Positions 123 through 34,006 of a stretch of DNA of 38,717 nucleotides are shown here, piece by piece; position 1 is the stretch's first letter; each line of letters begins with the position of its first letter. The notes under the pieces were generated by a model. It was given only the letters and a program-made list of their open reading frames with translations. It made no database searches and was not told the DNA's origin. The stretch is from a virus. The stretch is from IMG/VR virus record IMGVR_UViG_3300024259_000084; one strand, 5' to 3'. The position numbers were made by a program, and so were the translations under genes.

Positions 123-773
123 TTATCCACAATGATAGGTGCATCCAACAAAAGCTCTTTTATAATTAGAACCAGACCATTCAAATTCTACAGCATCATA
201 ACTTGCAGATGCATTCATATCAAAAGTGCAATCTTGTGTTATTTTTGCTACTGTATAATTGTGTAATAAATCATCGTCTTGTTTCATACCCAAACCTTGT
301 ATTGGTGATGAAGTAATATAATCTCCATTTTCTAAACTACCACTATAATTTGATACCCATATTGCACCTTCACCAAGTGAATTTATAATTAGTTTTTGGT
401 CATTACTATCTTCAGCCTCCATAGTACTGGTAAAAGAACCTTGATTATATTCCCTTACATATACAGAAGATGTTGTTTGAGTTAGTATTCGTTCACCTGA
501 TTCATTATATGTGAAAGATTCACTAACATTAGTATTTTGATAATTACTTTCAAGTTCTGATATGACACCAAATACTGTTTTATCATATGCAGTATTAGAT
601 AATTTTACTTTTGGTAGTGATTCGTTAATATTTGGTTTAACATCTTGTTTTACGTTATCATTATTATCCCACAAGTTATCATAAGTACCATCGGCGCAAA
701 CTATATATCCAATTGAACCTGTGTGCTCATTTACAGTTCCAGTTGATATAGAATTTCTGTGTTGTCCGGTAAA
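123..773 (-). other. C-terminal domain resembling autoproteolytic intramolecular chaperones of tail fibres (peptidase G2/S74-type role)
   Basis: Residues 4092-4307, from FTGQH to CTYHCG-stop, preceded by HIGIRATDPLSLLHI (GNVGIGTTxP-like fibre motif); family assignment from recall. Confidence 0.55.
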
Positions 774-3700
774 AGTAATTTGACCTACATTAGAATCATT
801 TTTAAGATACCCACCATAAGATCCACCATTATAATGGAAGTGGAGATATTCACTGCTGTTTACTCTCTGACTCCAATAAGTACCAGGAGAAACATTGTAA
901 AGTCGTATACCACCATCATCGTTATCAGTACTTTGTTGAATATGTAGAAGAGAAAGAGGATCTGTTGCTCTGATGCCGATATGTCCATCTGGTTCTAATA
1001 TAATATCATCATCTGCACCTATAATTAAATCTTCTGAGCTATCAGAATTAGAATAAATGTATGTATCAGTAGAACCAAAGAACATTTTTATGTCGTCTTG
1101 TAAAGTTATACCAGTATTGGCATTTAATCTGATTTTTTCAGTAGAGTTATTGTAAAGTTTTATAGCACCACAATCTACAGTTAGAGACAAAATTTCGACA
1201 GTCAATGCATCAGCATCTTGTGCACTAAAGTATGACCTTACCCCAAACAAACTCCCAGCAGCTGCTGCTCCAGTATTATTTCTAACAGTGACATCACCTA
1301 CTGATGACAGAGATCCAATTCTAAGAGCACTTGTTACAGCATCAGTATCCCCTAATTGAAGAACGTCGTTATCTTCTAACTTTAATGTATTAGCAGCTGA
1401 CCTATACATTGATATATCACCACCAAAATTTATACCATAAGCAGCAGTAGTTTGTGCAGTATTTCCAGCATCAGGATAATTACCCTCAGTAGTAGTTCCA
1501 CCACTATAACCAAGATTCAAACCATTTGCAGCGCCAGTTACACCACTATAAGGCCTTCCACCACCTACCCACAATGAACTATCCATAGCTACAGGAGCAC
1601 CTTTAAATAAACCTGCTAAATATCTAGCTCCAGTAATTCCCGCATCTGTTCCAGCAGCTACACCATACACTCCGACATGATCTATTTTACCAATATTTGA
1701 ACCAAATGATCTCCCCGAAATACCCGCAGCCATATGTCTATAATTCGCCGAGTTGGGAGCAGTAGCAGCATCAGCTGGTAAATTAGTTCCATCAAAGTCA
1801 GCATCACCGCTAATAGTAATAAATTTTTCGCCGGATCCAGACCAATTATCTTCTTGCAATCCATCGCCTACCGCATTATGTACTAATATAGAATTAGCAA
1901 AGAAATTGTGTATTGTTTCACCGGAAATTGTATATGTAACTGTTTCGTTCTCTTCTATTTCATTAATCTCCAATAACTCTAACTCAACTATTTCATTATC
2001 TTTATATTGTAGTGTTATATCCCCAACTTCTAATTGAGCACATTCATCTAAACCATAATCAAATTTATTTATTGAATCTTCAGGTGAAACTGAGCTCCAT
2101 CCTTTATCTTTTATAAAAACAGGATGTGAAGGTGTAAGTGTTATATCAACTTCATCAAATTCTAATTTAACTAATTCATCATGAACAGGACTTGAAACTT
2201 TTTTTATCTTCATTTCAGCTATCGATCCAGACTCAAATGATAAAACTATATCACCTTTATTTACATCTTCAATATTTTTCAAAGTTCCGTCTGCCATAGT
2301 AACTTTAGTACCAGCTATAAGACAGCCTGAAGTATAGTTCCATCTGCGAGTAAAATCTATTTCTCCATGAGCGGCTGTGATTTTTCCAATTATTTGAGTT
2401 CCAGCTCCTATTCTATTATCTACAACCCCAGCTATTGTTATAGCATTGGATTCACTTCCTGCTCCGTCATCACCTTTAAGAATTATTGAATTGGCTGTAG
2501 TTCCATCCGAGGTAAGTGTAGAAGTACCTAATGTCCAACCACCAATTGCACCATCTGAAGCTTTTATACCACCCTGCGCAGTAGTATACCAATAATTGTT
2601 AGCATCTATCCAAAGTCCATCATTTGTGCTACTTACATTTGGACCAAATCTCATATTTCCAGAACCAGCTTCTACATAACCCGTGAAAACTCCACCAGCT
2701 GCATTAATAGTTCCAGCAACTGTTGCCGAAGTTGCATTTAATACACCTTCATGTGTAACATTAAATTCATCTGCATCTCCTATCGATATACCATCAGTTC
2801 CAATCCACACACCATCAACATTAGAACCAAATGAAGATTTTCCATTAAGATATATTGATGGACCGGCTGGGTTCAATACAATATTTGTTGCTGATAATGT
2901 AGAACCTACAGTCCATCCACCAATTTCACCCGCTGTAGCAGTAATTGTACCTGACATATTAACATCACCACTAGCACTTAAATGGAAATTAGAAGAACTA
3001 ATTTCTATGTTACCATTTGAGCCACTTAGAAACTGACCACCTCCACCTAAATAAAAGTTTGATGAACTAATTTCAATTGAATCATTCTCAAACTTTAAAT
3101 GTGCACCACCCTTTTTACCTACATAAAATTTACTAACATCTGTAGAAGTTGGATCAGCTTGTAATTGAATGCCAGTTTCTCCAAAACTCGCGCTACCAAT
3201 AGCTATTAATCCTTGAGATGAATCTAATAACATAGCATCATTAAAACTCGCAGATGCGTATATCTTAAAAGAACTATCAAAGCTTGTTGCAGTTCCACCC
3301 GGCACCATATCTTTTGTTACAAACCTTACTGATATTTGGTCATCTGATTTAAATTTTGTGGCGGTGGATAGTACATCAGTTAAAACAATTGATGCTGTTG
3401 CTGCTCCTGGTGAATATGTTCCTTGGTCAGCAAAATAATATTTGTCTACCTCAACACCATTTCTCAAATATTGCACCCCAAGAGCATGGTCATTGCCCGA
3501 AGTAACTTTATATCTAACTTCAAATCCTGTTAATTTACCGCTTCTATTTGCAATACTATCAGATGCATTTTCTAATTCCCAATAAGTAAAATAGTCATTA
3601 TCTGGAACAGTAATACTAGCAGTTACATTTCCAACTTTAAAATTATTATCTCTATCAACAAGCCTCGTACCAATACGAAAATCACCTAATGAACCACTTA

Positions 3701-6700
3701 CAAAAGTTGTCGAATTGCCTAATAAAAAGGTATCCGCCTTCATTAGTAATTTAGGTGATGAGCCTTGGTCAAACTTTATAAAATTATCCCCATCAGCTCT
3801 AACTAAGAAATCACCAGTTCCATCCATATAGACACCAGCATTTGTTCCAGCAACACTTGTATTTGGTGTTGCTCCAAGTGCTATTGTACCACTACTTAAC
3901 GATGAACTAATAATCATCGTAGAAGTTTTTAACCCAAATATCTCAGATTTTATATCAAATGCATTTCCGTCTTGTCTAATATAATTGTCTTGGTCTACTT
4001 GGAAATTAAATTCACCACTACCACTTAACATTATTCCATTATCATTCAAATCTTTTGGAATAGTAGAACCCATTGCAATTGAACTACCATAAGATGATGA
4101 AACTCTCAAATTAGTAGTACTTAAATCAAATGTATCTGCTGCTACATCAATGGCTCCACCTGAACCACTTATGTAATTGGTTGCGTCTCCTAAATAAAAA
4201 TCTGACGAACTTACTCTTAAAGTTGAAGCATCCCAAAATATACCATAACCAGTTGCAGTTCCTGCTTTAAATTTACCATCACCATCGGCGTATACTCCTG
4301 TACCCGCGGTCATACTCAATGAATCTGCTGTTGCTCCCAACGCTATCTTAGAAGTTCCATCAAGATTACCCAATACAATAGTAGTAGCAGAGTGTCCTAT
4401 GGAAGAATTTCCACCCCAAATATCATTTGAACCTATATAAAAATTACTAATTCTTGAATCGGAACTACCATTTAAAGTTACTTTACTACCTATTGTAATT
4501 GAACCTGCGTTACTATCTCCATCCCCCTCAATGGCTATACCACTACCAACTAAAATATGTTTAGACGCTCCACTAATAACAATACCTTCTGCTAATGCTG
4601 AAGCTACCGCTGTATCAGTTATTCTTAAATATGTGGTATTTAAATCAAATGTATCTGCCGCCACTTTAATAGCTCCACCACTACCACTAATATAATTGGT
4701 TGCATCTCCTAAATAGAAATCTGGTGTTTTTAATGATATAGAACTTCCACTTAATGTTGTATTTCCTGTACTATAAATTGCGAGATTTCCACCACTACCA
4801 CTTATGTAATTTGAAGTATCTCCGAGATAAAAATCTGGTGATTTAAGTGTTATATCACTACCACTAAGATAAAAAGTCGTAGTTCGCATATCAATCGTAC
4901 TACCATCGATTCTAAGGTAATTGGAAGAATCACCATAAACATTTAATGCTCCACCACCATCCATATAAATACCTTGAGTAGCAGCAGTTGCAGTTAATGG
5001 TCCTCCATTAGTTCCCAATCTAATAGTTCCACTATTAACGGAACTACTAACAACCATCGTTGCTGTTCCTAAACCAAAAGTATCTGCCTGTATTTCAAAA
5101 TTACCATCTCCACCTATTATATAATTGTTAACATCTTCCTTAAAACTAAATTTACCATCTTTATCCAAATATATTCCAATATCACCATGTGTCATACTTA
5201 CAGTTGCATTAGTTCCTAATCTAATTTTTTCGGTATCTATTGCTAATGTAGTTGAACCTGAAAGTTCAAAGTTTTGTGATTTTATTTGAAAAGTTCCATC
5301 ATTCTTTATTAGATTATTAGCATCTTTTTGAAAATTAAAATATCCACTACCACTTAATATAATTCCATTTGAACTAAAATCAGTTGGTGGTGATGAACCC
5401 ATAGACAATCTTGTTGCACTTCCTGATGCAACTATATCCATAGTGGTTGTGTCTATGTTTAAATTGGTGGTTTTTATTTTTAATTCTTCACTACTTTGAT
5501 TGAATGATAAGAATGAAGTCCCACTTGTTCCAGTACCAACTCTAAAATCTCCATCACCATCTACAAAAAATCCAGTATTTGTATCGAAATCCGTTGCGGC
5601 TCCAAGTAAAATTTTATTGTTTGCTCCATTAGTATCTACACCAGTTATAGTTAAACCACCACCAGTACTTAAATTAAATTTAGTAGTTCTTAAATCAAAC
5701 TCACTTCCATTAAATGTAAAATATTTATCAGAATCCTTGTAGATTTCGAGTTTTGCGGTTCCAGAATCTTCACCTATTACTATTCCAACGCCACTTCCAA
5801 ATGTTCTACCGATTGACAAATAATTTGTAGTTGAACCAGCAGATTTTAGTATCATGTTTGGACTTGTCTTTGGTCCGAATGATAGATAGGAATCTGCTCC
5901 ACCGACCATTGTAACACCATACGTAGTATTTGTATCGTATCCAAGACTCATTGAGCTATGAGTAGATGATATTGATAAATCTGTAGCATCTAACTCAAAT
6001 TGATCAGTAGTCATATCAATATTAGATGCTGTAATATCCAAATGGGCCGATGCTATAGATAAATCTGTTCCATCAAATTTAATATATTCTGAACTATCCC
6101 CAACATGGAATTCGGTAGTTCCTGCTTTATTATGTAACCAAAAACCTGCAGTAGTATCACTAACATTCCGTTTAGCACTTCTGATTGTTCCACCATAATT
6201 ACTACCAGTCATCTCAATACCTTGACCACCAGTACTTCCAAGTTTAAAGTATGCTTGATTGGATGCGGAATATGCTAATTCTATTGCTCCATTTGCAATA
6301 CTCATAGATTTTTGTGTGGATGATAATTGTAAATCTCCATTATTTGCATCTAATTCAAATGCCCGTGTTTGAACATCTACGGCACTTCCACTATATCTAA
6401 TATAATCTGTTGCATCACCAACAACAAATTCTTGATCACCATCAGTATTTGCTAACCAAAATCCTGCAGTATTTGAAGTTACAGATGTTTTACCACTTCT
6501 AATTGCACCAACCGTGGATGAGCCGGTAATGTATATTGCCTTGGTTGAAGTTGATCCAATTCTTCCCCATGAATTAGTTGCATCATATGATTGGAAAATT
6601 ATGTCACCATCCCCAAATGACATTGACTTTTCAGTTGAAGATATTTTTAAATCACCACCACCCGCATTTAATTCAAATTGTTCAAGATTTATTCTTAAAT

Positions 6701-9700
6701 CATTTCCAAGACTTCCACCACTACCAGTTAAAAATAAATAATTATTTGTATCACCGACTTTCCATTCTGCGTTGGTGAACCAATAGTTATTATTATTCAG
6801 ATAAAACCCATCTTTAGTCCCACTTACATCTCGCCCCATTGCCATTTTATTATTAGCATCAGTTTCTATCCAAACAATTCCTGTAAATGAACCTGTTTGA
6901 GCTGTTATGGCTCCTTGTAAAAATACATTTTCTGTAAATAATCCAAATCCAGGAGAAGTATTTCCATATAATAATCCACTGCTTAATCCACTTAAATCAC
7001 CCAGTCTTGCTTTTAATTCTACATCATAAATAGCACTACCAGTTCGTTCTACAATATCAATATAAGGTGTTGTAGAATCATTTGGATTTGCATTGATCCT
7101 AACGAATCCACTGCCTGATCTGCCCGTTGATACGAGTACCTGACCACTTTCATAAGTCTGTGAGGCCTGTGCTGCGTCTCCAAGAGATGCAGTTGATTGT
7201 GTTCCAGGTAACGAACCACTATATCCACGAACAAGGTATAACTTACCACTTAAATCTTTTTCACTTGACGGATTATCTCTTGATGCACTATTAACAAACA
7301 TATACTCCGTTTTAAATCCTGTATCAGAGATTTTCTTTGCTGACAATATCTCACCAGATGTGAATCCACCAACATTTGCAACACTCATCGTTGTGTCTGT
7401 TGCAGATAATTGTACAGAACTTGTGTAAATAGTTGAATTTGCTACATATAATTGTCCACCAACCGCGTTTACACTTTCCTTTTCAAATACGGTTGTGGAT
7501 AAAGTACCACGAATTGTGACCTTTTCAAATTCAGCCTCTCCATTATTCGCAGAAGTTATTCTCCAACCTTTAACTCCACTTGCAAAATCTGAAGTTTGTA
7601 TAATTCCAGCTGAATCTAAAATCAAATTTTGACTTGTTATTTGATCCGTACTAATAGTCCACCCAGCAATTTTATTACGAACATCACTAAAATGTACTAA
7701 TTCATTCGACTCCGCTTCTGATCCGCTATCTGGTCCATCATAAATAACAAGACCATAATGAGATGCAGTAGTTGGATCAACTTCACCAATTCTTACTCGT
7801 ATACCAGCAGGTGAATCTGCATCATATATCTCAATTCTACTCTTAGCCGAATCAATATCTAATCTATCAGTATCTAACTTAAATGACGGAGTTGCAATAT
7901 CAATACCTGATGATTTCATTCTTAAATATTGAGTACTACTAATCGTATAATCAAATCTTGGATCATTACCATCCACACCCATTACCAACCCAGCTATTGA
8001 ATCTTGGTCAAATGTAGTTTTACTACCGAACTTCAACATCTTATCCGTTCCATCTGCGTGTAAAACGATTGCCCCACCACTTGAATCTGGATCACCAATA
8101 CTCATACTTGCGTGAGTAGATGAAATTTGAATATTAGAAGCACTTACTTCCATTTTTGTAGTTCTTAAATCAAGACCATCAGTAGAATCCCACCTCAGAT
8201 AATCATCTCCACTTTTTGCCATTTCAATCTTAGGAATATCATCATCCATTCCAACAATGATACCAATCGTAGATTTATCATAATCAGTAAAGGAAGTTTT
8301 ATTTCCCATAGTCATAAAGTTATCAGAAGCCCCACCTTGTATAGTAACTTTATTTGCTGATCCAACTTCTATTTTTGAATTTGCACCATCTAATAATATA
8401 TTGGCTGCTGCTCCTGGTACACCACCTAAACTCATAGATGCTTGTGTAGATGAAAGTTGTATATTAGAAGCTGCTAATGCTAATGTTCCTGTTTTTATAT
8501 CAAGGTCGGTTCCTGTAAATTTAAAATGTCCAGCACTTCCTACATAAGAAACTCTTGGTCTTGAAACCGAACTTACATATCCAAGAAATACTCCAGTCTC
8601 ACCATAGGCATCTGTTGCTTGTCCAATACTAACAAATGGATTTGCATTTCCACCTTTTAATAATAACTCTTTACCAGTTCCCAACGACATTGAAGCTTCA
8701 TTTGAAGATAATTCAAATCCTGTGGCTGATATATTGATATCCGTAACATTAATATCAACATCAGAACCAGTAATTGAAAAGTTTCCATTTTCAAATACTA
8801 TACCACCATCGGAATCACCAAAACGGAAATTACCATCTCCGTCCATAAAAATACCACTACCCGTTGCTAAACTAATAAAGTCAGCATCTGGTCCCATTGC
8901 AAACGTCGGTGTCTCTTTACCCTCTATAATAATCTTACCCTGTGGACTGTCAGAAGTATGTCCAAAACTCATAGAAGATTCGTTTGTTGATATTTGAATG
9001 GTTGATGCGGATACTTCAAGTTTACGAGAAGCTAAATCAATTTCTCCACCATCGAATTTTATAAAATCTGTTGCATTACCAACATGAAATTCTGGGTCAG
9101 TATTATTATTTGCTAACCAAAACCCCGCGGTTGTTGATGTTGCAGATGTTTTACCTGTTGCTATATATCCATAATCCGCATGACCTTGAAGTGTAATTTG
9201 TTTTGTCGATGTCGAACCTACTGTAATTTTACTATTCGCCCCGTCAAGTAAAATCTTACCCTCACCCAAAGACATACTTTGTTGGGTAGAACTTATTTCA
9301 ATATTTGTTGCATCTAATTCTAATGAACCAACTTGAACATCAAAATTAGTTCCATCATATTGTAAATGGTCACCACTTGCACTTCCAATTAAAAATTTTG
9401 CATCTCCATCAAAATAAATACCATTTCCACTATTATGGGCAGTAGGTGGTGTAGAACCAAGTGCTATTTTACCACTATTTGTTGCACTATCTATAACAAC
9501 TGTTCCAGCATCTAAATCAAAAACTTGTGATTTTATATCTATACCACTACCGGATGAAATCTTCAGATAATCATTTCCACTTACATTACCTTTTATCAAT
9601 ACATTACCACTACTATCAGCGAAGAAACCACTATTGGTTGTGGCTACGGTTGTTGCATCACTCAACCCACCAACTTCTATTGAACCAGCTGAATTTAATG

Positions 9701-12700
9701 TTACTACTCCACCAGTTAATGTGGTATCAGTTAATGTCCAACCACCCACTTTTCCACCAGTAAATAATACTTGTGATCCCGTTACATCTCCATCCGCTGT
9801 TACTTTAAATCGACTTGAAGAAATAAATAAATTAGTATCATCTGTACCATCATTTCCTGTTGCAGAACCACTTAAAAAGAAATTACTGGAATAAATTGCA
9901 TCACTACTAATTCCAAATCCGCCAATGTTACCTGCCGTAGCGGTAATAGTTCCTTGCATTGTAGTATTACCTGCATTATCAAGATAAAATCCTGAAGAAC
10001 TTATTTCTAATAGTCCATTAGAACCACTTACATATTGACCAGCCCCACCTAAGAAAAAATTTGATGAACTTAATATTAAATTAGTACCATTAAATTCTAC
10101 TCTTTGTCCATCTGCATCACCTGCTCTAAAGTAACCACTATTACCTATCCAAACACCATCTCCAGTATTAAGGTCAGTGGCATCCCCCATTTCTATTGCG
10201 TCTCCAGCTCGTAATGCCATATTTGTTGCAGTTAAATCATCACCACTTATAGTCCAACCAGCGATTTTTCCACCGTCAAATAATACTTGTGATCCTGTTA
10301 CAACACCACCCGCGGACACTTTAAATCTACTTGATGAAATAAACGATGCTGGATCTGATGTATCTGCGGAAGCAGATATCCTCCAATATGGTGAATAGGC
10401 TAATGACGCACTTTCTATTGATGCTCCACCGATTAAACCTGCAGATGCTGTAATTGTTCCTTCAAATACCGCTCCACTCGCAACCAATACTCCATCACTA
10501 TCAACTGCAAAATTAGGTCCAAACTTAACAAAATAATTAGTAGTATTACCTTGATCAGCTGGTGTAAAATCAATATAATATTCATCTCTTTGAATATCAA
10601 ATGTAGCCGAACTATCAGTATCTGGTCCCTTGTCGGACATATATAATGCCGCTCCAGTTGCATCTAATGTAGCGTTACTACCACTTAATTTACCATCTTT
10701 AATAATCCAATCACCAATATTACCTGCCGTGGCTGTAATAGTTCCTGTCATAGTAACATCACCACTTGCAGATAAATGAAAATTAGATGAACTAATTTCT
10801 ATATTTCCACCACTACCACTAATGTATTGAGTGTTTTGATTTCCTACGTAGAATGCATCGGCTCTAATATCTAATTCACTTGGACTACTTCTATATCTTA
10901 AATAACTTTCACTTGTAGCTACGAGTTCTAACCCAACACCCGTATAAGAATCACCACTATCTGGTAATACTGAACCGGACCACATTAAGAATCCACCTTG
11001 ACCAGTTCCTTCTGATGCACTTGTGAATCCTTCATATCCTATTGAACGAATAAAGCCAGAACTTACACCTGCCATTTCAATACCACTACCGATGGCATTA
11101 CCAATATACATAGAACCACTTAATATATTATCAGTTCCACCAATGGACGTATTCTCTCCTTGAAATGTAAAAAAATCACTAAAAATTACCGTGTCGGCTA
11201 TATTATTATTTACATCATAAAACTCCACTAAAAATCTTACACTATCTGGTCGGGTGTACAATGGTGGTATCGGTGCAACTACTTTTACATAATCAGGATT
11301 AAAAGCAGTATCTGACGCTGCTTTTACAGAAATATCTGAAATATACCATTCACCTGACGGAACTTTAAATTGTAATTTTCCTGTTCCTGTATTGTCTGCT
11401 GTGAAATTTCCTTCTATGGTTCCAAAGTCGTAATTATCAACTCCGCTTGGGAATTCTGGAACTTCTAATTTTTGAACTCCCCAATGTGATGCTTCTGTAG
11501 TATCTTTATTAAATGCATCACCTACCACGTATACTTGAAAATCACCCCGTTTAGTTACATTCCCACTAACATCCTTTTTATTCGTCTTTGTACCGTAAAG
11601 TTTTGCACGGAAAGTGTATAGTCCGTTAGCAACAAAATTTAAATCATTTTTTACTTGAACACGTAGTTCACTTTCATATTCTCTATTTGATCCAGAGATT
11701 TTCATAGAATCTATTACAATAGAAGAATCAAAAGTTAATGTTCCACTTCCCCCATCTCCATTATTTCCTTCATACGATTCCCAGTATTTTGTTATTCTCG
11801 CCTGGTCAATCCAATACCCCATGTTAGATAATGAAGTATCTTCGTTAGAATCAAATAATATTTCTGAACTTTCTATTGGAGAATCAAATATCTTTTCAAA
11901 GTCCCCAAGTGAACCTTCAGCCTTTGAATAAATCTTTACTTTATGTACATCTCCTGAAAATGTTTTTAAATCGGAAATTTCCATATCAGCGAATGAAACA
12001 TAATTTATAGATGATGTAGTCTGAGTTGAAATATCTTTGTAACTTGTATTTATAGTTTGAGATGCCAAAGGGGCTGGTACAAGAGTTACAGGAGAAGTTC
12101 TCGTATCGTGAACATAAAATAGATCAGAAGTTACAAATGAAGTTTCATTCAATACTTTCATTACTGATGAACTGAAATAAGTAGGGATGGAGTGATATGA
12201 TTCTAATGTGAATTTTGAAGCATCTACTTGTGGTGAAGTTATAGTAACTTCTTGACCTACATATAAACTTGTTACTAATGTGGAAGAATCAGTTGTAATT
12301 ATATAATCATTTGGAGATGGAGAATTCGTTTTTAATAATTTTCCTTGTGAACCAATATGACCACCTTTACCAGTTAATTTAATAAGTGGTTTATTTTCTT
12401 CTATTGTAGCCTTATTTGCTTTTTGTTTAAAATCAAGTTCTGGATAATCACCAGCTACAGAATTTGGAGTTGGTGTAATACTTTGTAAACCGTCTCTCGG
12501 TTGACCACTTACAAGTAAAGAAGAAGTTATTGGAGTTACACTTGGAACATTTAAATATCCCTTAAAAATTTCTGAAACTGTTATAGTTGGTTGTTTATAG
12601 AAAAATATAGGTTCGGTATTTACACCAGCAGCATTTATTGTAATCTGTTTAGTCCACCTTACATTATAAATCCCTTGCCATTCTGTTGGTATATTTACAT

Positions 12701-13046
12701 CAGAAGAATCTGGATTTAATTCTCCAACTATATAAAGAGTTGCTGGACCTGGTTCAACATCTTCATATATTTCAATGGAAACTCTACGAGAACCGGCTTC
12801 TAAATGACCACTAACGGCTTGAGTATATATTACTTCACCGGTTCCGTTATGTATTAACTCAAATTTTAATTCAACACCAGACTTTAAATAGGATGATCCA
12901 CCGATTAGGAAACTACTTTTACCTTGAGTTAATATTGTAGGGCATTCCAATACCCTAAAATACTTGGAATCAAATAAAGTATCTTCTACTAATATATCTA
13001 TGTCTTTTAAGTTTAATAACTCGTTTTTACGTTTTAATACACCCAA
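123..13046 (-). CDS. Giant tail fibre / receptor-binding protein (4307 aa) with internal repeats, Hint domain and C-terminal intramolecular-chaperone-like domain
   Basis: TTG start with AGGAGA SD (13058-13053); Gly/Ser/Thr-rich beta repeats (GTITATAGxIGxW, SSTxxSMSxG, FYLGDxxNYISGSGG); GWRI..GEAEFEKVTIRG motif as in phage tail tip/fibre proteins; C-terminal FTGQH...GEGAIWV...NGDYITSS...YTVAKIT...GCTYHCG. Confidence 0.85.
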   Translation of the reverse strand: MGVLKRKNELLNLKDIDILVEDTLFDSKYFRVLECPTILTQGKSSFLIGGSSYLKSGVELKFELIHNGTGEVIYTQAVSGHLEAGSRRVSIEIYEDVEPGPATLYIVGELNPDSSDVNIPTEWQGIYNVRWTKQITINAAGVNTEPIFFYKQPTITVSEIFKGYLNVPSVTPITSSLLVSGQPRDGLQSITPTPNSVAGDYPELDFKQKANKATIEENKPLIKLTGKGGHIGSQGKLLKTNSPSPNDYIITTDSSTLVTSLYVGQEVTITSPQVDASKFTLESYHSIPTYFSSSVMKVLNETSFVTSDLFYVHDTRTSPVTLVPAPLASQTINTSYKDISTQTTSSINYVSFADMEISDLKTFSGDVHKVKIYSKAEGSLGDFEKIFDSPIESSEILFDSNEDTSLSNMGYWIDQARITKYWESYEGNNGDGGSGTLTFDSSIVIDSMKISGSNREYESELRVQVKNDLNFVANGLYTFRAKLYGTKTNKKDVSGNVTKRGDFQVYVVGDAFNKDTTEASHWGVQKLEVPEFPSGVDNYDFGTIEGNFTADNTGTGKLQFKVPSGEWYISDISVKAASDTAFNPDYVKVVAPIPPLYTRPDSVRFLVEFYDVNNNIADTVIFSDFFTFQGENTSIGGTDNILSGSMYIGNAIGSGIEMAGVSSGFIRSIGYEGFTSASEGTGQGGFLMWSGSVLPDSGDSYTGVGLELVATSESYLRYRSSPSELDIRADAFYVGNQNTQYISGSGGNIEISSSNFHLSASGDVTMTGTITATAGNIGDWIIKDGKLSGSNATLDATGAALYMSDKGPDTDSSATFDIQRDEYYIDFTPADQGNTTNYFVKFGPNFAVDSDGVLVASGAVFEGTITASAGLIGGASIESASLAYSPYWRISASADTSDPASFISSSRFKVSAGGVVTGSQVLFDGGKIAGWTISGDDLTATNMALRAGDAIEMGDATDLNTGDGVWIGNSGYFRAGDADGQRVEFNGTNLILSSSNFFLGGAGQYVSGSNGLLEISSSGFYLDNAGNTTMQGTITATAGNIGGFGISSDAIYSSNFFLSGSATGNDGTDDTNLFISSSRFKVTADGDVTGSQVLFTGGKVGGWTLTDTTLTGGVVTLNSAGSIEVGGLSDATTVATTNSGFFADSSGNVLIKGNVSGNDYLKISSGSGIDIKSQVFDLDAGTVVIDSATNSGKIALGSTPPTAHNSGNGIYFDGDAKFLIGSASGDHLQYDGTNFDVQVGSLELDATNIEISSTQQSMSLGEGKILLDGANSKITVGSTSTKQITLQGHADYGYIATGKTSATSTTAGFWLANNNTDPEFHVGNATDFIKFDGGEIDLASRKLEVSASTIQISTNESSMSFGHTSDSPQGKIIIEGKETPTFAMGPDADFISLATGSGIFMDGDGNFRFGDSDGGIVFENGNFSITGSDVDINVTDINISATGFELSSNEASMSLGTGKELLLKGGNANPFVSIGQATDAYGETGVFLGYVSSVSRPRVSYVGSAGHFKFTGTDLDIKTGTLALAASNIQLSSTQASMSLGGVPGAAANILLDGANSKIEVGSANKVTIQGGASDNFMTMGNKTSFTDYDKSTIGIIVGMDDDIPKIEMAKSGDDYLRWDSTDGLDLRTTKMEVSASNIQISSTHASMSIGDPDSSGGAIVLHADGTDKMLKFGSKTTFDQDSIAGLVMGVDGNDPRFDYTISSTQYLRMKSSGIDIATPSFKLDTDRLDIDSAKSRIEIYDADSPAGIRVRIGEVDPTTASHYGLVIYDGPDSGSEAESNELVHFSDVRNKIAGWTISTDQITSQNLILDSAGIIQTSDFASGVKGWRITSANNGEAEFEKVTIRGTLSTTVFEKESVNAVGGQLYVANSTIYTSSVQLSATDTTMSVANVGGFTSGEILSAKKISDTGFKTEYMFVNSASRDNPSSEKDLSGKLYLVRGYSGSLPGTQSTASLGDAAQASQTYESGQVLVSTGRSGSGFVRINANPNDSTTPYIDIVERTGSAIYDVELKARLGDLSGLSSGLLYGNTSPGFGLFTENVFLQGAITAQTGSFTGIVWIETDANNKMAMGRDVSGTKDGFYLNNNNYWFTNAEWKVGDTNNYLFLTGSGGSLGNDLRINLEQFELNAGGGDLKISSTEKSMSFGDGDIIFQSYDATNSWGRIGSTSTKAIYITGSSTVGAIRSGKTSVTSNTAGFWLANTDGDQEFVVGDATDYIRYSGSAVDVQTRAFELDANNGDLQLSSTQKSMSIANGAIELAYSASNQAYFKLGSTGGQGIEMTGSNYGGTIRSAKRNVSDTTAGFWLHNKAGTTEFHVGDSSEYIKFDGTDLSIASAHLDITASNIDMTTDQFELDATDLSISSTHSSMSLGYDTNTTYGVTMVGGADSYLSFGPKTSPNMILKSAGSTTNYLSIGRTFGSGVGIVIGEDSGTAKLEIYKDSDKYFTFNGSEFDLRTTKFNLSTGGGLTITGVDTNGANNKILLGAATDFDTNTGFFVDGDGDFRVGTGTSGTSFLSFNQSSEELKIKTTNLNIDTTTMDIVASGSATRLSMGSSPPTDFSSNGIILSGSGYFNFQKDANNLIKNDGTFQIKSQNFELSGSTTLAIDTEKIRLGTNATVSMTHGDIGIYLDKDGKFSFKEDVNNYIIGGDGNFEIQADTFGLGTATMVVSSSVNSGTIRLGTNGGPLTATAATQGIYMDGGGALNVYGDSSNYLRIDGSTIDMRTTTFYLSGSDITLKSPDFYLGDTSNYISGSGGNLAIYSTGNTTLSGSSISLKTPDFYLGDATNYISGSGGAIKVAADTFDLNTTYLRITDTAVASALAEGIVISGASKHILVGSGIAIEGDGDSNAGSITIGSKVTLNGSSDSRISNFYIGSNDIWGGNSSIGHSATTIVLGNLDGTSKIALGATADSLSMTAGTGVYADGDGKFKAGTATGYGIFWDASTLRVSSSDFYLGDATNYISGSGGAIDVAADTFDLSTTNLRVSSSYGSSIAMGSTIPKDLNDNGIMLSGSGEFNFQVDQDNYIRQDGNAFDIKSEIFGLKTSTMIISSSLSSGTIALGATPNTSVAGTNAGVYMDGTGDFLVRADGDNFIKFDQGSSPKLLMKADTFLLGNSTTFVSGSLGDFRIGTRLVDRDNNFKVGNVTASITVPDNDYFTYWELENASDSIANRSGKLTGFEVRYKVTSGNDHALGVQYLRNGVEVDKYYFADQGTYSPGAATASIVLTDVLSTATKFKSDDQISVRFVTKDMVPGGTATSFDSSFKIYASASFNDAMLLDSSQGLIAIGSASFGETGIQLQADPTSTDVSKFYVGKKGGAHLKFENDSIEISSSNFYLGGGGQFLSGSNGNIEISSSNFHLSASGDVNMSGTITATAGEIGGWTVGSTLSATNIVLNPAGPSIYLNGKSSFGSNVDGVWIGTDGISIGDADEFNVTHEGVLNATSATVAGTINAAGGVFTGYVEAGSGNMRFGPNVSSTNDGLWIDANNYWYTTAQGGIKASDGAIGGWTLGTSTLTSDGTTANSIILKGDDGAGSESNAITIAGVVDNRIGAGTQIIGKITAAHGEIDFTRRWNYTSGCLIAGTKVTMADGTLKNIEDVNKGDIVLSFESGSIAEMKIKKVSSPVHDELVKLEFDEVDITLTPSHPVFIKDKGWSSVSPEDSINKFDYGLDECAQLEVGDITLQYKDNEIVELELLEINEIEENETVTYTISGETIHNFFANSILVHNAVGDGLQEDNWSGSGEKFITISGDADFDGTNLPADAATAPNSANYRHMAAGISGRSFGSNIGKIDHVGVYGVAAGTDAGITGARYLAGLFKGAPVAMDSSLWVGGGRPYSGVTGAANGLNLGYSGGTTTEGNYPDAGNTAQTTAAYGINFGGDISMYRSAANTLKLEDNDVLQLGDTDAVTSALRIGSLSSVGDVTVRNNTGAAAAGSLFGVRSYFSAQDADALTVEILSLTVDCGAIKLYNNSTEKIRLNANTGITLQDDIKMFFGSTDTYIYSNSDSSEDLIIGADDDIILEPDGHIGIRATDPLSLLHIQQSTDNDDGGIRLYNVSPGTYWSQRVNSSEYLHFHYNGGSYGGYLKNDSNVGQITFTGQHRNSISTGTVNEHTGSIGYIVCADGTYDNLWDNNDNVKQDVKPNINESLPKVKLSNTAYDKTVFGVISELESNYQNTNVSESFTYNESGERILTQTTSSVYVREYNQGSFTSTMEAEDSNDQKLIINSLGEGAIWVSNYSGSLENGDYITSSPIQGLGMKQDDDLLHNYTVAKITQDCTFDMNASASYDAVEFEWSGSNYKRAFVGCTYHCG
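1875..2324 (-). other. Hint (intein-like/BIL) domain, 150 aa, no endonuclease
   Basis: Residues 3575-3724: block A CLIAGTKVTMADG, block B TLTPSHPVF, block F/G HNFFANSILVHN; the +1 residue is Ala. Confidence 0.92.
2913..3035 (-). repeat. 41-aa repeat in tail fibre, distal copy
   Basis: QFLSGSNGNIEISSSNFHLSASGDVNMSGTITATAGEIGGW; 34/41 aa identical to the copy at 10707-10829. Confidence 0.9.
10707..10829 (-). repeat. 41-aa repeat in tail fibre, proximal copy
   Basis: QYISGSGGNIEISSSNFHLSASGDVTMTGTITATAGNIGDW; a third, more diverged copy lies near 9920-10040. Confidence 0.9.
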
Positions 13047-13319: not shown

Positions 13320-16300
13320 CTATTTAAATTTAGATGGTAATTTCAACTGACTAAATCCATCTATTTTAGATATTTCTAATAAACTGTCTACGGCATCTCT
13401 CATTGATTCAATATGAGAAACAATAAATACAAATTGAAATTGAGTTTTAAGATATTGAAATAGCATATAAACAGAATTCAAATTATCCGAATCCATATTT
13501 CCAAACCCTTCATCTATTGCTAAAAAATTGGCTCGTGGTAAATTACACACGTTAATCAATCCAACACGTATTGCTAATGAACTAACAAATCGTTCCATTC
13601 CACTACTTAATTCAAGTGGCCAAACATTATCTTCATCATATGTAATATATGTATTTATATTCTTTCCATCCATTTCTAATACAATACCAAATTCTACCAT
13701 CTGAGCAAGAATATCATTAACCTCACCTTCAATTGCAGGGAGTGCCTTCTCTATAAGTTCATATGGAATACCATCACGTTTTACCGCGTCCATGTAAAAA
13801 TCGTAAGCTTCATATTTATTTTCTAAATCTTCCACTCTATTCATTGTTTCAATGATAGACGTTTTCTTTGTTTGATTTATCTTTATTTCACCATGAATAG
13901 TTTGTATTTTTTTATCTATGGTTTCTATTTGATAATCAAAATCTTCAACTGAATTTTTTAAATTTTCAATTTCTATTTCTGTCTTATTATTATAGATTAT
14001 ATCATTTTCATTTTCATGGTATTTTTCAATCTTATTATTAGTATTTGACATTTGATGAAGTACATTTATCTTTTTTTCTTTTAAAATAACTTCTTCTGAT
14101 TCTAATTTATTTTGCGTTATTTCAATTTGTTTTAATGATTCAATCACTTCATCATAATTTACTTTGTCATCGTGAATGTTTTCAATCTTTTTTAATTTAA
14201 CATCAATATCATCTAACTTAGAAATATATTCACTTGCTAACTTCTTGTCACCATTTAATCTTTCTTTGGTTTCCATTGCATCTAACGTGAATGGATTGTT
14301 CATACAATACTCACAATTCTCATCCCATCCTAAATTACCAAGTTTTTCAATTTTGTCTAATTTATTACGAACTTCAATTTTTAGCTTGTCAATTTCTATC
14401 TGAATTTTCTGTCGTTTATTTTCCAAATTAATAAAATCGTTATACTTTTGATTCACATTTGAATCAGTATATGATTTCGCTCTATTCGTTAATTCAGTAT
14501 TATTTGATTGTAAAACAATCATTTCTGATTTAACTGAGCCAAGTCTCGTATCTATTACATCAAGTTGAGTATTAAATCCATCTAACTCCACATTCAACTT
14601 ATCTATATCTGAAATGGATGCATCGATAGGTCTTAACTTTTTAGTCAATCCTAATATTTGCTCACTTAATTCTGTTCGTCTTGTTGTAAGAGTTTTCTTT
14701 TGACTTTTTAAATCCCTACGAACTTCATTATATTGAGTATTGTCTTTTTCTATATCAGCCAATTCCACGTCATAATTAGTTTTATTAAAATCTCGTAATA
14801 CTGCTGATATATCTGACATTTCATCGTTTGCTAAAGTATAAAGACTATCGAATGCACTTAATCCCATGAACTGGGCAAGTAGATCTTTCCGTTCTTTTTG
14901 AGTTTTATCTATAAATACAGTTGAATTATTTTGTAGAGAAAGAGATGTTATAATAAAATCATCGTATGTTCCAATAATTCTATATATGTTATTATTTGTG
15001 GTTCTACGTTGATCTCCATTTAAGGAAATTTTATCTCCACTATCATCAATTGTCCAGAAATCAACATCAACTTTTACATGCCCATTTCGTTGTCGTTTTG
15101 CATTACGTTCAATAAAATATTCAGTTTCGTTTATTTCAAAATTAACTTTACATTTAAAATAATTTCTTTTGTTATTTAATACTCTATCCGCTTTATATGC
15201 TCTATCTGACGTATCGAATAAACAAAAAGAAAGAGAATCCAAAAGAGCTGACTTTCCTGATGCGTTTGGTGCGAATAATCCAATAATACCATTTAACTTA
15301 GTAAAATCAACTATATTATCTTCACCATAACTAAACATATTGGAAAATTCAAATTTCTTTAATTTCCAATTTATATTACGAGAAACATCTTCATCTGGAA
15401 GTTGATTATTTAAATCATCATTTATTCCTTTTATTTCTAATAATATTTCATCACTTACTGTGTGGTTTCTTTTTAAATAATCTCTAATTAATTTAAACTG
15501 GTAATCTGGATTTGTAACGTCTCCAACATCAACGGTTCTATCCCCACGAACTCTTTCTGTCAATCTGTCAGTCCTATTTACAACTATCTCCTTTATACCG
15601 TATTTCGTCTGTATTACAGTCAAGGCCTTCTTTAGTTGAACAGAGTCAGTGTTAGATACCCTTACTCTTAACCTGGCCTTTTGAGGCATATCGGGTACAT
15701 CAGGAACTATACCATCATCAATATCCATAGTATAATATCCGTAATCATTTTGTATTTTTATATATTCAGATTTTCTATTTGGAACATCCCATAATAGATA
15801 ACCGTGATCTAATCCTTCCCCATGGTTTTGTTGTACGAGGCTACCACAATAACTTATCGTCTCTTCCTTATTTAGATGCTGTCGAAGGTGAATATCTCCC
15901 AGTAATCCCAAATCGTAACCTTTGAATTTGTTAATTTTAACATCGGATGGCAATCTAAATCCTAAATCTGTTGAACTTTTATCAACCGTTCCATGAAATA
16001 ATACTATTTTAGTATCACCTTCTACATCTGTAGCTTTGATAAAATTTTTCGATTCATCCCATACATCCCACACCACAAACCTAACATCTGCGAATTTATA
16101 TATTCCACTATCTTTTAGATAATGTAAGTTTGGATGATTGAGGTTATCTACTATTGGTGATAAACAATCCATCCTTGATAAATTATTTAAATTACAATCA
16201 TGATTTCCCGCAATGATAATTGTAGGACAAATGTCAGATAAATTCTTAAATAACCTTGATAATTGGTCAATCAACTCAGGTGACATTTCAGTTTTTGAAT

Positions 16301-16484
16301 GTGCTATATCACCACCGATATAAGCTATTGAATTACCATCATTGTGTTTATTTATTGATTCATATAACCGCTCAAACACTTCTTCATATTCACGATGGCG
16401 TTTCAAATTTCTGATTTGTATATCGGATATATGAAATATTTTTTTTAGTTTACGAAATGGAACTTTTACAACTTGCTCTTTCAA
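13320..16484 (-). CDS. Fused Mre11/SbcD nuclease - Rad50/SbcC ATPase (T4 gp47+gp46-like recombination nuclease)
   Basis: Phosphoesterase motifs HISDIQ, GGDIAH, AGNHD, FHG, GDIH; Walker A APNASGKS; coiled coils with CEYC zinc hook (14304-14315); signature LSSGME; Walker B FLAIDEGFG; H-loop VSH; TTG start with AGGAGA SD. Confidence 0.95.
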   Translation of the reverse strand: MKEQVVKVPFRKLKKIFHISDIQIRNLKRHREYEEVFERLYESINKHNDGNSIAYIGGDIAHSKTEMSPELIDQLSRLFKNLSDICPTIIIAGNHDCNLNNLSRMDCLSPIVDNLNHPNLHYLKDSGIYKFADVRFVVWDVWDESKNFIKATDVEGDTKIVLFHGTVDKSSTDLGFRLPSDVKINKFKGYDLGLLGDIHLRQHLNKEETISYCGSLVQQNHGEGLDHGYLLWDVPNRKSEYIKIQNDYGYYTMDIDDGIVPDVPDMPQKARLRVRVSNTDSVQLKKALTVIQTKYGIKEIVVNRTDRLTERVRGDRTVDVGDVTNPDYQFKLIRDYLKRNHTVSDEILLEIKGINDDLNNQLPDEDVSRNINWKLKKFEFSNMFSYGEDNIVDFTKLNGIIGLFAPNASGKSALLDSLSFCLFDTSDRAYKADRVLNNKRNYFKCKVNFEINETEYFIERNAKRQRNGHVKVDVDFWTIDDSGDKISLNGDQRRTTNNNIYRIIGTYDDFIITSLSLQNNSTVFIDKTQKERKDLLAQFMGLSAFDSLYTLANDEMSDISAVLRDFNKTNYDVELADIEKDNTQYNEVRRDLKSQKKTLTTRRTELSEQILGLTKKLRPIDASISDIDKLNVELDGFNTQLDVIDTRLGSVKSEMIVLQSNNTELTNRAKSYTDSNVNQKYNDFINLENKRQKIQIEIDKLKIEVRNKLDKIEKLGNLGWDENCEYCMNNPFTLDAMETKERLNGDKKLASEYISKLDDIDVKLKKIENIHDDKVNYDEVIESLKQIEITQNKLESEEVILKEKKINVLHQMSNTNNKIEKYHENENDIIYNNKTEIEIENLKNSVEDFDYQIETIDKKIQTIHGEIKINQTKKTSIIETMNRVEDLENKYEAYDFYMDAVKRDGIPYELIEKALPAIEGEVNDILAQMVEFGIVLEMDGKNINTYITYDEDNVWPLELSSGMERFVSSLAIRVGLINVCNLPRANFLAIDEGFGNMDSDNLNSVYMLFQYLKTQFQFVFIVSHIESMRDAVDSLLEISKIDGFSQLKLPSKFK

Positions 16485-16489
16485 ACTAT

Positions 16490-16696
16490 TTATTTCTCCT
16501 TGAGAATTTTTCTTGCAACTTTTATTTTATTTGCAGGAACACTAATATCCCATGCAAATACTTTACTTTTCTTAAAATATTCACATACGATTTTTCCGTT
16601 TGCTTCTTTGACTATTTTGTTCACTTTACGTTTTTTCTCCGAATGAATTCTGTATTCATCATCGTAAAGTTTCCAAACGTCTTGGTTTTTTGCCAT
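16490..16696 (-). CDS. Hypothetical small basic protein (68 aa)
   Basis: Fills the gap between primase and the nuclease-ATPase, co-oriented, overlaps the primase 3' end. Confidence 0.6.
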   Translation of the reverse strand: MAKNQDVWKLYDDEYRIHSEKKRKVNKIVKEANGKIVCEYFKKSKVFAWDISVPANKIKVARKILKEK

Positions 16697-17627
16697 TTAA
16701 TTTATATCGCATCAAATCTGAAAACTTCATTTTTTTGGTAGATTTTAGTATATCTACCATTTTTGTAAATCCCAAATCCGATGGATCCTTTTGTGAAAGT
16801 TCTACAAAATATACATCTATACCGTTTCTCATAAACTCATCAACCATTTTTAATGAATCTTTAATAGCGTCAGTGTCTAATGATATATATATCGTTTTTA
16901 CTTTTTTTTCAATAATTTTTCTTTTTAATTTTGATAGGATAGTTTTACCGAATAGAGGAATGGCATTCCTTTTGATTGCTATCGCGTCAAATACTCCCTC
17001 AACTAAACATATTGGCTCATCCCAGTTAATAAGTAAATCAAATCCAATAATATTCTTTGGAGACGGCGAATTTCTATATTTCATTTTACTATCAAATATA
17101 TCCCTACCCACAAAAAAATTTAATTGGCTGTTATTATCATATGACGGTATAATAACTCTATTAGTATACAATCCACTTGTGCAATATCCTATATTATACT
17201 TTAATAAATCTTCTTGTGTAATACCACGCCTGAACATATATTTTTTAGCATTTTCAAATTCAGGACCTCTACCACCATTCCATAATGGTTGATATTCTTT
17301 TGGTAACTCTACAGTTTGAACTTGTGTATTTTTTACACTAGTTCGATTATACGAAGTTTCACCAACGATATCACGAAGCTCACTCCATTGTTCTTTTGTT
17401 GCATTTAACTTTTTGAATAACTGGAATAACGTTCTTCCTTTAAAATCACACACCCAGCAATGATAAAAACCAAATTGTTTAGAATTTCGATTTAAATTTA
17501 CCTGTAATTTTTTCTTATAGTGATTACACTTTGGACAATAAAATTGCAATTCACCAGATTTTAATTTCTGATATTTTCCTATAAGTCGTTCAACTAAATA
17601 ATATAATTTATCCAATAACGAACTCAC
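16659..17627 (-). CDS. DNA primase (zinc-binding domain + TOPRIM)
   Basis: CPKC...HCWVC zinc finger; RVIIP; TOPRIM LVEGVFDAIAI, LDTDA, KDPSD; GTG start. Confidence 0.9.
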   Translation of the reverse strand: MSSLLDKLYYLVERLIGKYQKLKSGELQFYCPKCNHYKKKLQVNLNRNSKQFGFYHCWVCDFKGRTLFQLFKKLNATKEQWSELRDIVGETSYNRTSVKNTQVQTVELPKEYQPLWNGGRGPEFENAKKYMFRRGITQEDLLKYNIGYCTSGLYTNRVIIPSYDNNSQLNFFVGRDIFDSKMKYRNSPSPKNIIGFDLLINWDEPICLVEGVFDAIAIKRNAIPLFGKTILSKLKRKIIEKKVKTIYISLDTDAIKDSLKMVDEFMRNGIDVYFVELSQKDPSDLGFTKMVDILKSTKKMKFSDLMRYKLNGKKPRRLETLR

Positions 17628-32887: not shown

Positions 32888-34006
32888 TTATCTTTCCACT
32901 TTGAAACTGTTCTTTTCGTCAAAATATTGAACAGTTTCATCGGCAGTACCACTACCACTTACTATTTTATAATTTATTCTGTAAAATCGTTCTGATTGTA
33001 ATCCGTTCATCCAGAAGTTAAAATAGTTTCCGGTTGAATCACAACTAACTACTGAACCACTGCCAAACGGAACAATAACATCATCTGTATAAGCATCTTT
33101 TATTTGATAATATGTACTGCCACTTGGAAGAGTTTTTACCGTATTATATCCGGTAGTATATTGAGTTGATGAATATGACCGTTCTGGAAACATTTCCCTA
33201 CCAACAACTCTAAATTTTACTTTTGAATTTTCTTTATACTTTTCTCTAAACCCTCTCATATAAATTTGCACATCTTCTAAATTAGCTGATGATAATGCTG
33301 TTAATGAACCAGTTACCCATTTTGAATCATCCCAAACTACTTCTAATTTTGGGGGATAAATTGTGTGAGTTTCCCTTGAGAAAAAACTGAAATTTCCATA
33401 TCGTGTAGTATTTCCTTCTTCAACATCAGAATCAGTATTTCCAATGCTACCACTTCTTTTTACCATAAATCCCTCGTTTGAAACTGTACTGTGTAACCAT
33501 TTCCACATAATATCAGTTACATCCATTCTTACATCTGCTGGTTCATTTGTAAAAGATTGTGATGCTTCGTATCCACTTCCACTATACCACGTTCCACCAG
33601 ATCCAGAAACAGTATTCCATTGGGTTCTTGTTATCCCATTATCTTTCCATTTCCAACCTGCTCCATCTTCTACGATTGGAGAAAGATTATATCTTCCAGA
33701 TCCATTCTCCCATGATTGACTTACTGGATATGAGTATAAAGTTTGATCTACATTCAATGCAGATGAATTTGCATCAAATAAATTTAAATAAAATTTTGTG
33801 CTTGAACCGGAAGTTATTAAACCAGATGATACTGATTGAGAAATATAAGTTAAATCAAATTTAACGAGTGCTCTTGAAACATATATTTGAGTTCCGGCTA
33901 CATTCATATCTTTTCTTATTTCTAAAATTTCATCCAACCCTGTATTCATGCTATGACTTTGTTCGTAAAGTGTTGTGTCCTTTTCACTAAATTCAAAATA
34001 ATGCAT
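32888..34006 (-). CDS. DNRLRE/CBM96-like domain structural protein (372 aa)
   Basis: SRALVKFDL...W.NG.G...DVT.I...W.....NEGF...FSRE.....PKLEV pattern; TAATG coupling to the wedge gene. Confidence 0.65.
   Translation of the reverse strand: MHYFEFSEKDTTLYEQSHSMNTGLDEILEIRKDMNVAGTQIYVSRALVKFDLTYISQSVSSGLITSGSSTKFYLNLFDANSSALNVDQTLYSYPVSQSWENGSGRYNLSPIVEDGAGWKWKDNGITRTQWNTVSGSGGTWYSGSGYEASQSFTNEPADVRMDVTDIMWKWLHSTVSNEGFMVKRSGSIGNTDSDVEEGNTTRYGNFSFFSRETHTIYPPKLEVVWDDSKWVTGSLTALSSANLEDVQIYMRGFREKYKENSKVKFRVVGREMFPERSYSSTQYTTGYNTVKTLPSGSTYYQIKDAYTDDVIVPFGSGSVVSCDSTGNYFNFWMNGLQSERFYRINYKIVSGSGTADETVQYFDEKNSFKVER

Follow-up and report, generated by a model that had tools for sequence, protein, structure and literature searches.

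The 38,717-nucleotide stretch of viral DNA analysed here (IMG/VR record IMGVR_UViG_3300024259_000084, hereafter the window) contains a giant fibre-like gene whose product of 4307 amino acids (aa) carries an internal Hint domain of the bacterial intein-like (BIL) type. The evidence is best explained by a Hint which has been inherited vertically as the middle part of a cassette, composed of a conserved N-flank, the Hint itself and a downstream module (tipA), in the giant fibres of marine myovirus-like phages. By analogy with BIL domains of known activity, we give a probability of about 45% to the Hint being an active autoprocessing domain which would cut the precursor into a shaft, a free Hint and a tip, three parts that may stay associated.

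Identity and class of the fibre Hint

The gene is the longest open reading frame (ORF) of the window and starts with TTG (coordinates are collected in Table 1). The Hint covers exactly 150 aa, running from CLIAGTKV through TLTPSH to NFFANSILVHN, and is followed by AVGDGL. It leaves 3574 aa on its N-terminal side and 583 aa on its C-terminal side (3574 + 150 + 583 = 4307), in agreement with the arithmetic of an earlier interpretation made from the letters of the window and their translations (the sequence-only reading). A length of 150 aa leaves no space for an endonuclease insert, and the claim of that reading that the ORF holds a complete Hint without homing endonuclease is borne out alike by the translation, by the Pfam and NCBIfam profiles, by a PDB sequence search, and by an AlphaFold2 (AF2) model searched against known structures with Foldseek. 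Among the Pfam families, the 150 aa match AXH with 60.6 bits (cut-off 33), a model which consistently picks up this Hint subfamily, and Vint with 27.1 (cut-off 27); Intein_splicing reaches 34.0, below its cut-off of 35.8, and Hint, Hom_end_hint and Hint_2 give weaker matches. The NCBIfam model intein_Nterm scores 27.4 (cut-off 24.5), and the PT-HINT profile (PF07591) gave no match to this copy at E<=1. In the PDB, the best sequence match is BIL2 of Tetrahymena BUBL1 (6Y75/6TMM, E-value 1.5e-8), with the NrdJ-1 intein (4e-5) and the Clostridium thermocellum BIL 2LWY (5e-4) further down. The AF2 model, built for the Hint and its flanks from 12 orthologues, has a predicted local distance difference test score (pLDDT) of 82-93 over the Hint, and its closest structure according to Foldseek is again BIL2 (6Y75/6TMM, rank 1, E-value 8e-12, template modelling (TM) score 0.83-0.86). 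This is followed by 2LWY (rank 5) and then by the true inteins, with Hedgehog (1AT0) at rank 30; TM scores against BILs and inteins lie between 0.77 and 0.87. The nearest solved relatives of the fibre Hint are BIL domains, by sequence as well as by fold, and inteins and Hedgehog rank lower.

The features which define the known Hint classes were compared with those of the fibre domain. It has the fold and the blocks A (Cys1), B (TxxH), F and G of the Hint superfamily. It also has the Cys1, the terminal His-Asn (H149-N150) and the non-nucleophilic C'-flank (A+1) of A-type BILs, and it lies, as they do, in a variable region of a non-conserved protein, here a giant fibre with modular, shuffled termini. 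The nearest proxy for the type motifs of Amitai et al. 2003 is 2LWY, at the E-value and rank given above. A class 1 intein would have Cys, Ser or Thr at +1, where this fibre has Ala3725 and 7 of the 8 clade members have Ala, and it would occupy a conserved host site with intein-less alleles, where we find a hypervariable fibre (sampled by ~12 sequences). A PT-HINT would stand directly before a polymorphic toxin domain, whereas the swap point of the fibre (~aa 4021) is 297 aa past the Hint. The C-terminal position, the absence of Asn cleavage and the adduct-recognition region of Hedgehog-type Hints do not agree with a 583-aa C-extein and a conserved His-Asn, and the BUBL type is set apart by its ubiquitin-like flanks, which are absent here, and by its lysine acceptor, the +1 residue of the fibre Hint being Ala. 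By those features which can be tested, the fibre Hint is an A-type-like BIL, and neither an intein nor a PT-HINT. The sequence-only reading had called it a BIL/pretoxin-type Hint, of which the BIL part holds, given the nearest relatives, and the pretoxin part is not supported, given the lack of a PT-HINT match.

Conservation of the Hint at a single fibre site

A Hint is present at the identical fibre site in about 12 diverged homologues (P0020, P0021, P0022, P0024, P0032, L004 and L020-L026), drawn from protein and contig collections in which independent orthologues are few (~12). All of them keep the block-B T..H and the terminal His-Asn, and position 1 is Cys in all but L020, which has a Ser1, also a competent nucleophile. 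In the closest clade (seven sequences) the junctions read R-x-W-x-[YF]-x-x-[GST] / C/S ... VHN / A, and the R-x-W-x-[YF] motif of the N-flank is kept throughout the Ala+1 clade; the C-terminal junction is HN / S in P0021 and HN / K in a second clade, and no +1 nucleophile is conserved. Identity to the window protein is 55-65% in the Hint, 32-61% in the N-flank and 46-63% in tipA, the Hint being conserved at least as well as its flanks, and the 12 orthologues with intact catalytic residues share only 27-60% identity overall. The seven Ala/Ser+1 fibre Hints group together to the exclusion of all others (support 0.999) in a tree built from 286 Hint copies. The GC content at third codon positions is 12.7% in the Hint, the same as in the rest of the gene, and a recent horizontal insertion was rejected on this ground; synonymous sites are saturated at 50-60% identity. 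A Hint-less homologue with the same tip, which the sequence-only reading had named as the sign of a passenger insertion, was searched for, and for the adjoining tipA no such allele was found either in the protein index (at longer lengths) or in a scan of IMG/VR with a tipA-only alignment. Taken together, the conservation at one site, the divergence in parallel with the flanks, the exclusive clade and the codon composition argue that the Hint is an old, selected resident of the fibre and not a passenger insertion.

Four further copies, from independent metagenomes, span the Hint region (three full-length, and one 1396-aa fragment corresponding to aa 2912-4307). These copies are 99.9% identical, with the Hint and the Ala at +1 unchanged, and the Hint is therefore no assembly artefact. 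The Ala at +1 pointed out in the sequence-only reading is thus read in the window and in all four copies, and is conserved in the fibre clade.

This conservation also bears on the idea that the Hint performs no chemistry, and persists in the mature fibre either as an inert knob at its side or as the decaying remnant of a mini-intein. The N- and C-termini of the domain are adjacent, so that it can loop out without breaking the fibre, and the missing +1 nucleophile is readable as decay. We find this improbable, however, as Cys/Ser1, the block-B T..H and the terminal His-Asn are kept in 12 orthologues as diverged as described above, the Hint is no less conserved than its flanks, and Cys1 occurs in 244 of 245 copies of the wider family.

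The related fibre P0006 (2798 aa, with an S74 end) shares with the window protein a 65-aa stretch of 88% identity, which ends in ...WYTTAQGGIKASD and is located ~75 aa upstream of the window Hint. P0006 has no Hint at the shared stretch, and has another one near its N-terminus (aa 132-269; C...SHN, Leu at +1, PT-HINT 24 bits).

Tip modules and position of the swap point

Within the 583 aa downstream of the Hint, the first module, tipA (291 aa), was seen only in proteins with a Hint directly upstream, and has no Pfam or PDB sequence match. The second, tipB, is present in more than 2552 proteins (E<=1e-5); 120 of them were inspected, and this Hint occurs in none. In P0170 and P0171, tipB is 94% identical from ~aa 4021 on and the upstream sequence is unrelated, and the Hint-less giant fibres P0003-P0005 have only tipB in common with the window protein. 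The ends found after tipA also differ among the same-site orthologues, with a CTYHCG-type end in L004, an S74 chaperone in P0022, and at least three more types of terminus in L020, L021, L022-24 and L025/26. The shuffling of tipB and the varied ends past tipA show that what is exchanged is the terminal module following tipA, ~300 aa beyond the Hint, rather than a module starting at the Hint border, and that the N-flank, the Hint and tipA behave as one cassette.

The sequence-only reading had proposed to check whether homologous fibres keep the Hint and swap the 583 aa which follow it, and had likened the architecture to that of polymorphic toxins. Different ends were indeed found, but they begin at ~aa 4021 and not at the Hint border. 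Toxin Hints abut the variable domain, whereas this swap occurs ~300 aa farther on; its position past tipA weakens the analogy, and the proposed polymorphic-toxin architecture is not supported in this respect. The proposal of a receptor-binding or effector tip is not supported either, as Pfam, PDB searches and Foldseek assigned the tip to no fold of a toxin, an effector or a receptor-binding protein. The AF2 model of tipB has a mean pLDDT of 61, with low confidence over the most conserved stretch, and Foldseek gave no significant match for this model; the ESM Atlas provided a weak lead to Peptidase_G2 chaperone domains (rank 15, score 0.91).

The tipB module (...GDYITSSPIQGLGMKQDDDLLHNYTVAKITQDC...GCTYHCG, window 126-986, minus strand) occurs very commonly at the C-terminus of marine viral proteins, some of which have collagen or MAM domains, and one of the records is labelled Micromonas pusilla virus. 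A likeness by eye between tipA and the region preceding S74 in P0006 was dropped, the BLAST alignment not being significant.

Proposed processing of the precursor

In the processing that we favour, Cys3575 would attack the carbonyl of Gly3574 in an N-S acyl shift, assisted by the Thr and His of block B, which would leave the 3574-aa shaft with a thioester at its end. Asn3724 would then cyclise and free a C-extein beginning at Ala3725. Class 1 splicing requires Cys, Ser or Thr at +1, and canonical trans-esterification would be impossible here because this residue is Ala. As with tested BILs, cleaved pieces would be the main products, here the shaft, the Hint on its own and a tip of 583 aa (tipA and tipB), which may stay bound non-covalently or be shed. 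The pattern of conservation suggests selection for both thioester formation at Gly3574-Cys3575 and cyclisation of Asn3724, and none for a +1 nucleophile. We infer both the occurrence of these reactions and the prevailing products from BIL domains without a +1 nucleophile, which yield mostly N- and C-cleaved products and can be converted to efficient splicers by one mutation (PMC7664689). The A-type BILs end in His-Asn and are found in hypervariable regions of non-conserved proteins (PMC7765530). If cleavage does occur, it would place a built-in break, or joint, between the 3574-aa shaft and the host-facing tip.

Several observations weigh against cleavage as the outcome. The flanks of the Hint are poorly modelled (pLDDT <50), so that their packing is not readable. 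If the tip were shed, it would be hard to explain the self-removing S74 chaperone which follows tipA in P0022, a layout which suggests that the mature fibre includes tipA and needs it attached. The close orthologue P0021 has a Ser at +1, which could permit ordinary splicing and hints that ligation is at least tolerated. Flanks of BILs are also said to be ligated without a nucleophilic side chain, reportedly in the work of Aranko et al. 2013 and Dassa et al. 2004.

Ligation of this kind would excise the Hint and re-join its flanks into a seamless 4157-aa fibre, the alpha-amine of Ala3725 attacking the Gly3574 thioester after cyclisation of the Asn, as in BIL-type ligation without nucleophilic side chains, with WNYTSG-AVGDGLQEDNWSGSGEK as the predicted junction peptide. 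It would agree with the conservation of both junction chemistries in all orthologues and with a +1 residue which is small (Ala/Ser) and conserved in the clade next to a variable +2. The toggling between Ala and Ser at +1 in close relatives (P0021 versus P0022 and L020) looks as if the outcome were independent of this residue, the separate S74 chaperone of P0022 implies a place for tipA in the mature fibre, and a precedent is cited in PMC7664689. We nevertheless hold ligation to be unlikely, though with roughly one chance in four not negligible, since cleavage products were dominant in the tested BILs (PMC7664689; PMC7765530), a neutral splicing element should leave alleles with the N-flank and tipA but no Hint, of which none was found, and the Ser1 of L020 would give an oxygen ester, which is a poorer substrate for aminolysis.

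The wider Hint subfamily

A search through all of 1.84 billion cluster representatives returned 838 proteins matched through the Hint at E<=1e-10, and 245 full Hint copies were located in the best 150 of these. Among the copies in these 150 proteins, Cys1 is found in 244 and the terminal His-Asn in 219, and the +1 residue is K in 151 (62%), R in 25, S in 15, E in 11 and A in 10. Some copies form tandem head-to-tail arrays, with up to seven detected stretches and six full-length copies. Across species-representative genomes, the subfamily is most frequent in Bacteroidota, and is also found in Paenibacillus and its relatives and in several archaeal metagenome-assembled genomes (MAGs). These cellular copies are mostly 1-15 aa from the end of the protein, and some have lost the terminal Asn and keep the Cys1, which is a Hedgehog-like autoprocessing layout. 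The distribution is as expected for Hints of the BIL/pretoxin type and not for homing inteins. The relatives P0006, P0044, P0036 and the L008 protein do match PT-HINT, and some members of the wider family are in YD/RHS-like proteins.

By analogy with the isopeptide formation of BIL2, and with the Hedgehog-like terminal Hints of Bacteroidota, the thioester of the fibre Hint might be used for transfer rather than for hydrolysis. The domain would then act as a thioester generator, and the activated Gly3574 at the shaft C-terminus would be joined as an isopeptide to a lysine or another amine, either within the fibre or virion or at the surface of the host, giving a trimer cross-link, a non-standard bond between shaft and tip, or a covalent host-surface 'harpoon'. 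BIL2, which is the top match by both sequence and structure, forms K(epsilon-NH2)-C-terminal isopeptides from its N-extein onto various substrates (PMC8616854). The frequent Lys at +1 in the family (151/245), next to a near-invariant Cys1, also fits transfer, as does the near-terminal position of the cellular copies, a layout in which only the chemistry of the N-junction counts. In the fibre, however, the +1 residue is Ala and the Ala clade has no conserved Lys near the junction, there are no ubiquitin-like flanks, and a simple transfer would not need the strict conservation of His-Asn seen in the fibre clade, and we give transfer a low probability. Both transfer and the inert knob are less likely than ligation, and what probability remains belongs to outcomes other than those described here. 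Should either ligation or transfer be true, a structural protein would offer a natural example of protein ligation without a nucleophile. The search exposes a large, uncharacterised Hint subfamily of which the sole studied relative forms isopeptide bonds.

Other observations were made on members of the subfamily. The linkers in the arrays often have 1-5 residues (VHN-RY-C, VHN-KGF-C), as in P0023, P0027, P0029, P0033, L029, L032, L039 and L040. The cellular examples (L059-L109) are mostly from Bacteroidota (Aquimarina, Tenacibaculum, Flavobacterium), and in L030 the Hint is carried by a protein of 1404 aa with many YD-like repeats. A phage protein of 629-781 aa is conserved in L008-L011, L040, L044, L047 and L048 (IMG/VR and metagenome contigs of 50-219 kb). 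Its N-terminal ~470 aa have no Pfam family and finish with a Hint-like ...SFVTHN, after which come AP and one or two full Hints, with 1-7 residues past the last Hint. The Pfam family AXH (Ataxin-1/HBP1 module) is the top one across the subfamily (members P0023-P0169, 44-137 bits), and PDB chains of the Ataxin-1 AXH domain match the first ~105 residues of the Hint (E-value 4e-6 to 8e-6), which suggests a relationship between the eukaryotic AXH domain and this Hint lineage; no paper naming AXH together with inteins was found in the literature searched.

Features of the window and phage setting

Table 1. Position of the fibre-like gene, its Hint region and neighbouring genes in the window.
Feature	Position	Strand	Details
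Giant fibre-like ORF	123-13046	-	4307 aa; repeats SSSNFHL...GTITATAGxIGGW
tipB	126-1001	-	aa 4016-4307; ends GCTYHCG; shared part from ~aa 4021 (window ~986)
tipA	1002-1874	-	aa 3725-4015; seen only right after the Hint
+1 residue Ala3725	1872-1874	-	codon GCG; orthologues: A in 7, S in 1, K in 5
Mini Hint (BIL-type)	1875-2324	-	aa 3575-3724; Pfam/NCBIfam, PDB sequence search, AF2, Foldseek
Terminal His-Asn, putative Asn cyclisation site	1875-1880	-	aa 3723-3724; 12/12 same-site fibres, 219/245 family-wide
Block B T-P-S-H	2124-2135	-	aa 3638-3641; Thr and His invariant in alignments A2 and A5
Cys1 codon, putative nucleophile for the N-S acyl shift	2322-2324	-	aa 3575; Cys in 244/245 family copies
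Conserved N-flank (end of N-extein)	2325-2564	-	~aa 3495-3574; ends ...GEIDFTRRWNYTSG; Gly3574 at -1
SbcCD-like nuclease gene	13320-16484		
Primase gene	16659-17627		
Baseplate wedge gene	34006-35934		phage context of the giant ORF

The window has a low GC content (29-36%), and nearly all of its long ORFs are on the minus strand. Its baseplate protein is 40-48% identical to the counterparts from Microcystis phage Mel-JY01 and Flavobacterium phage immuto, and on the basis of this gene and its phage relatives the Hint-bearing protein comes from a large, uncultured, marine myovirus-like phage, which is found repeatedly in ocean metagenomes, those of TARA included. The protein is called fibre-like because it is rich in repeats, because its relatives P0006 and P0022 end in S74, and because a stretch of tipB occurs in a tail protein of Colwellia phage 9A; its attachment to the phage tail is plausible. 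That stretch (58 aa) was the sole match of the last 833 aa in a tblastn search against cultured phages, and for the N-terminal 800 aa one unannotated megaphage was the only match. The whole protein and the tip had no match in PHROGs, in which the Hint alone gave a single weak match to a family of unknown function.

Among the same-site orthologues, L004 is encoded on an IMG/VR contig of 41.8 kb, where its neighbours are an endolysin and a large terminase. The window has another giant ORF (25817-32584, minus strand, 2255 aa), which adjoins the baseplate genes and has no Pfam or PHROG match. The near-identical fibre fragments P0008-P0010 are deposited in NCBI under Candidatus Woesearchaeota and Marinimicrobia MAGs, labels which probably reflect phage contigs binned into cellular MAGs.

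Comparison with known systems

The fibre Hint shares with BIL2 of Tetrahymena thermophila BUBL1 (6TMM, 6Y75) the Cys1, the block-B His and the terminal Asn. BIL2 differs in having ubiquitin-like flanks, the upstream one of which it conjugates to lysines (PMC8616854), whereas the window Hint is located between fibre shaft and tip, has an Ala at +1 and is only ~24% identical to it. The Hint fold, the N-terminal Cys, the C-terminal His-Asn and the non-nucleophilic +1 residue are common to the fibre Hint and A-type BILs such as that of Clostridium thermocellum (2LWY), as is a host protein which is variable, non-conserved and extracellular (PMC7765530). Here, however, the Hint is hosted by the virion fibre of a phage and conserved along with a fixed module that follows it, and the subfamily is a distinct one, with the motifs KNIED, DHPxxVKxKGWSS and NHNFFAN. 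The pretoxin HINT (PF07591) resembles it by its location near the C-terminus of huge filamentous repeat proteins whose homologues have differing terminal modules, but the window copy does not match PF07591, has the conserved 291-aa tipA between the Hint and the swapped module, and no toxin or immunity gene was identified here. Class 1 mini-inteins (NrdJ-1, DnaB, gp41-1) have the same fold and blocks A, B, F and G, and likewise no homing endonuclease; they are distinguished from the window Hint by its Ala at +1, by its lack of a conserved housekeeping-enzyme site, and by the fact that no intein-less allele was found.

A literature search for Hint domains in phage fibres found only inteins in terminases, and the literature searched contains no description of a conserved Hint cassette in such a protein. 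The known self-processing of phage fibres and spikes is that of the terminal S74/G2 chaperone-protease domains, which also cleave themselves during maturation of a trimeric phage fibre, and S74 is present on the homologues P0006 and P0022. Their fold and chemistry are unrelated to those of the Hint: S74/G2 domains use a Ser-Lys dyad, are terminal and remove only themselves, whereas an internal Hint co-inherited with a tip module would be a distinct, thioester-based step in the maturation of a virion appendage.

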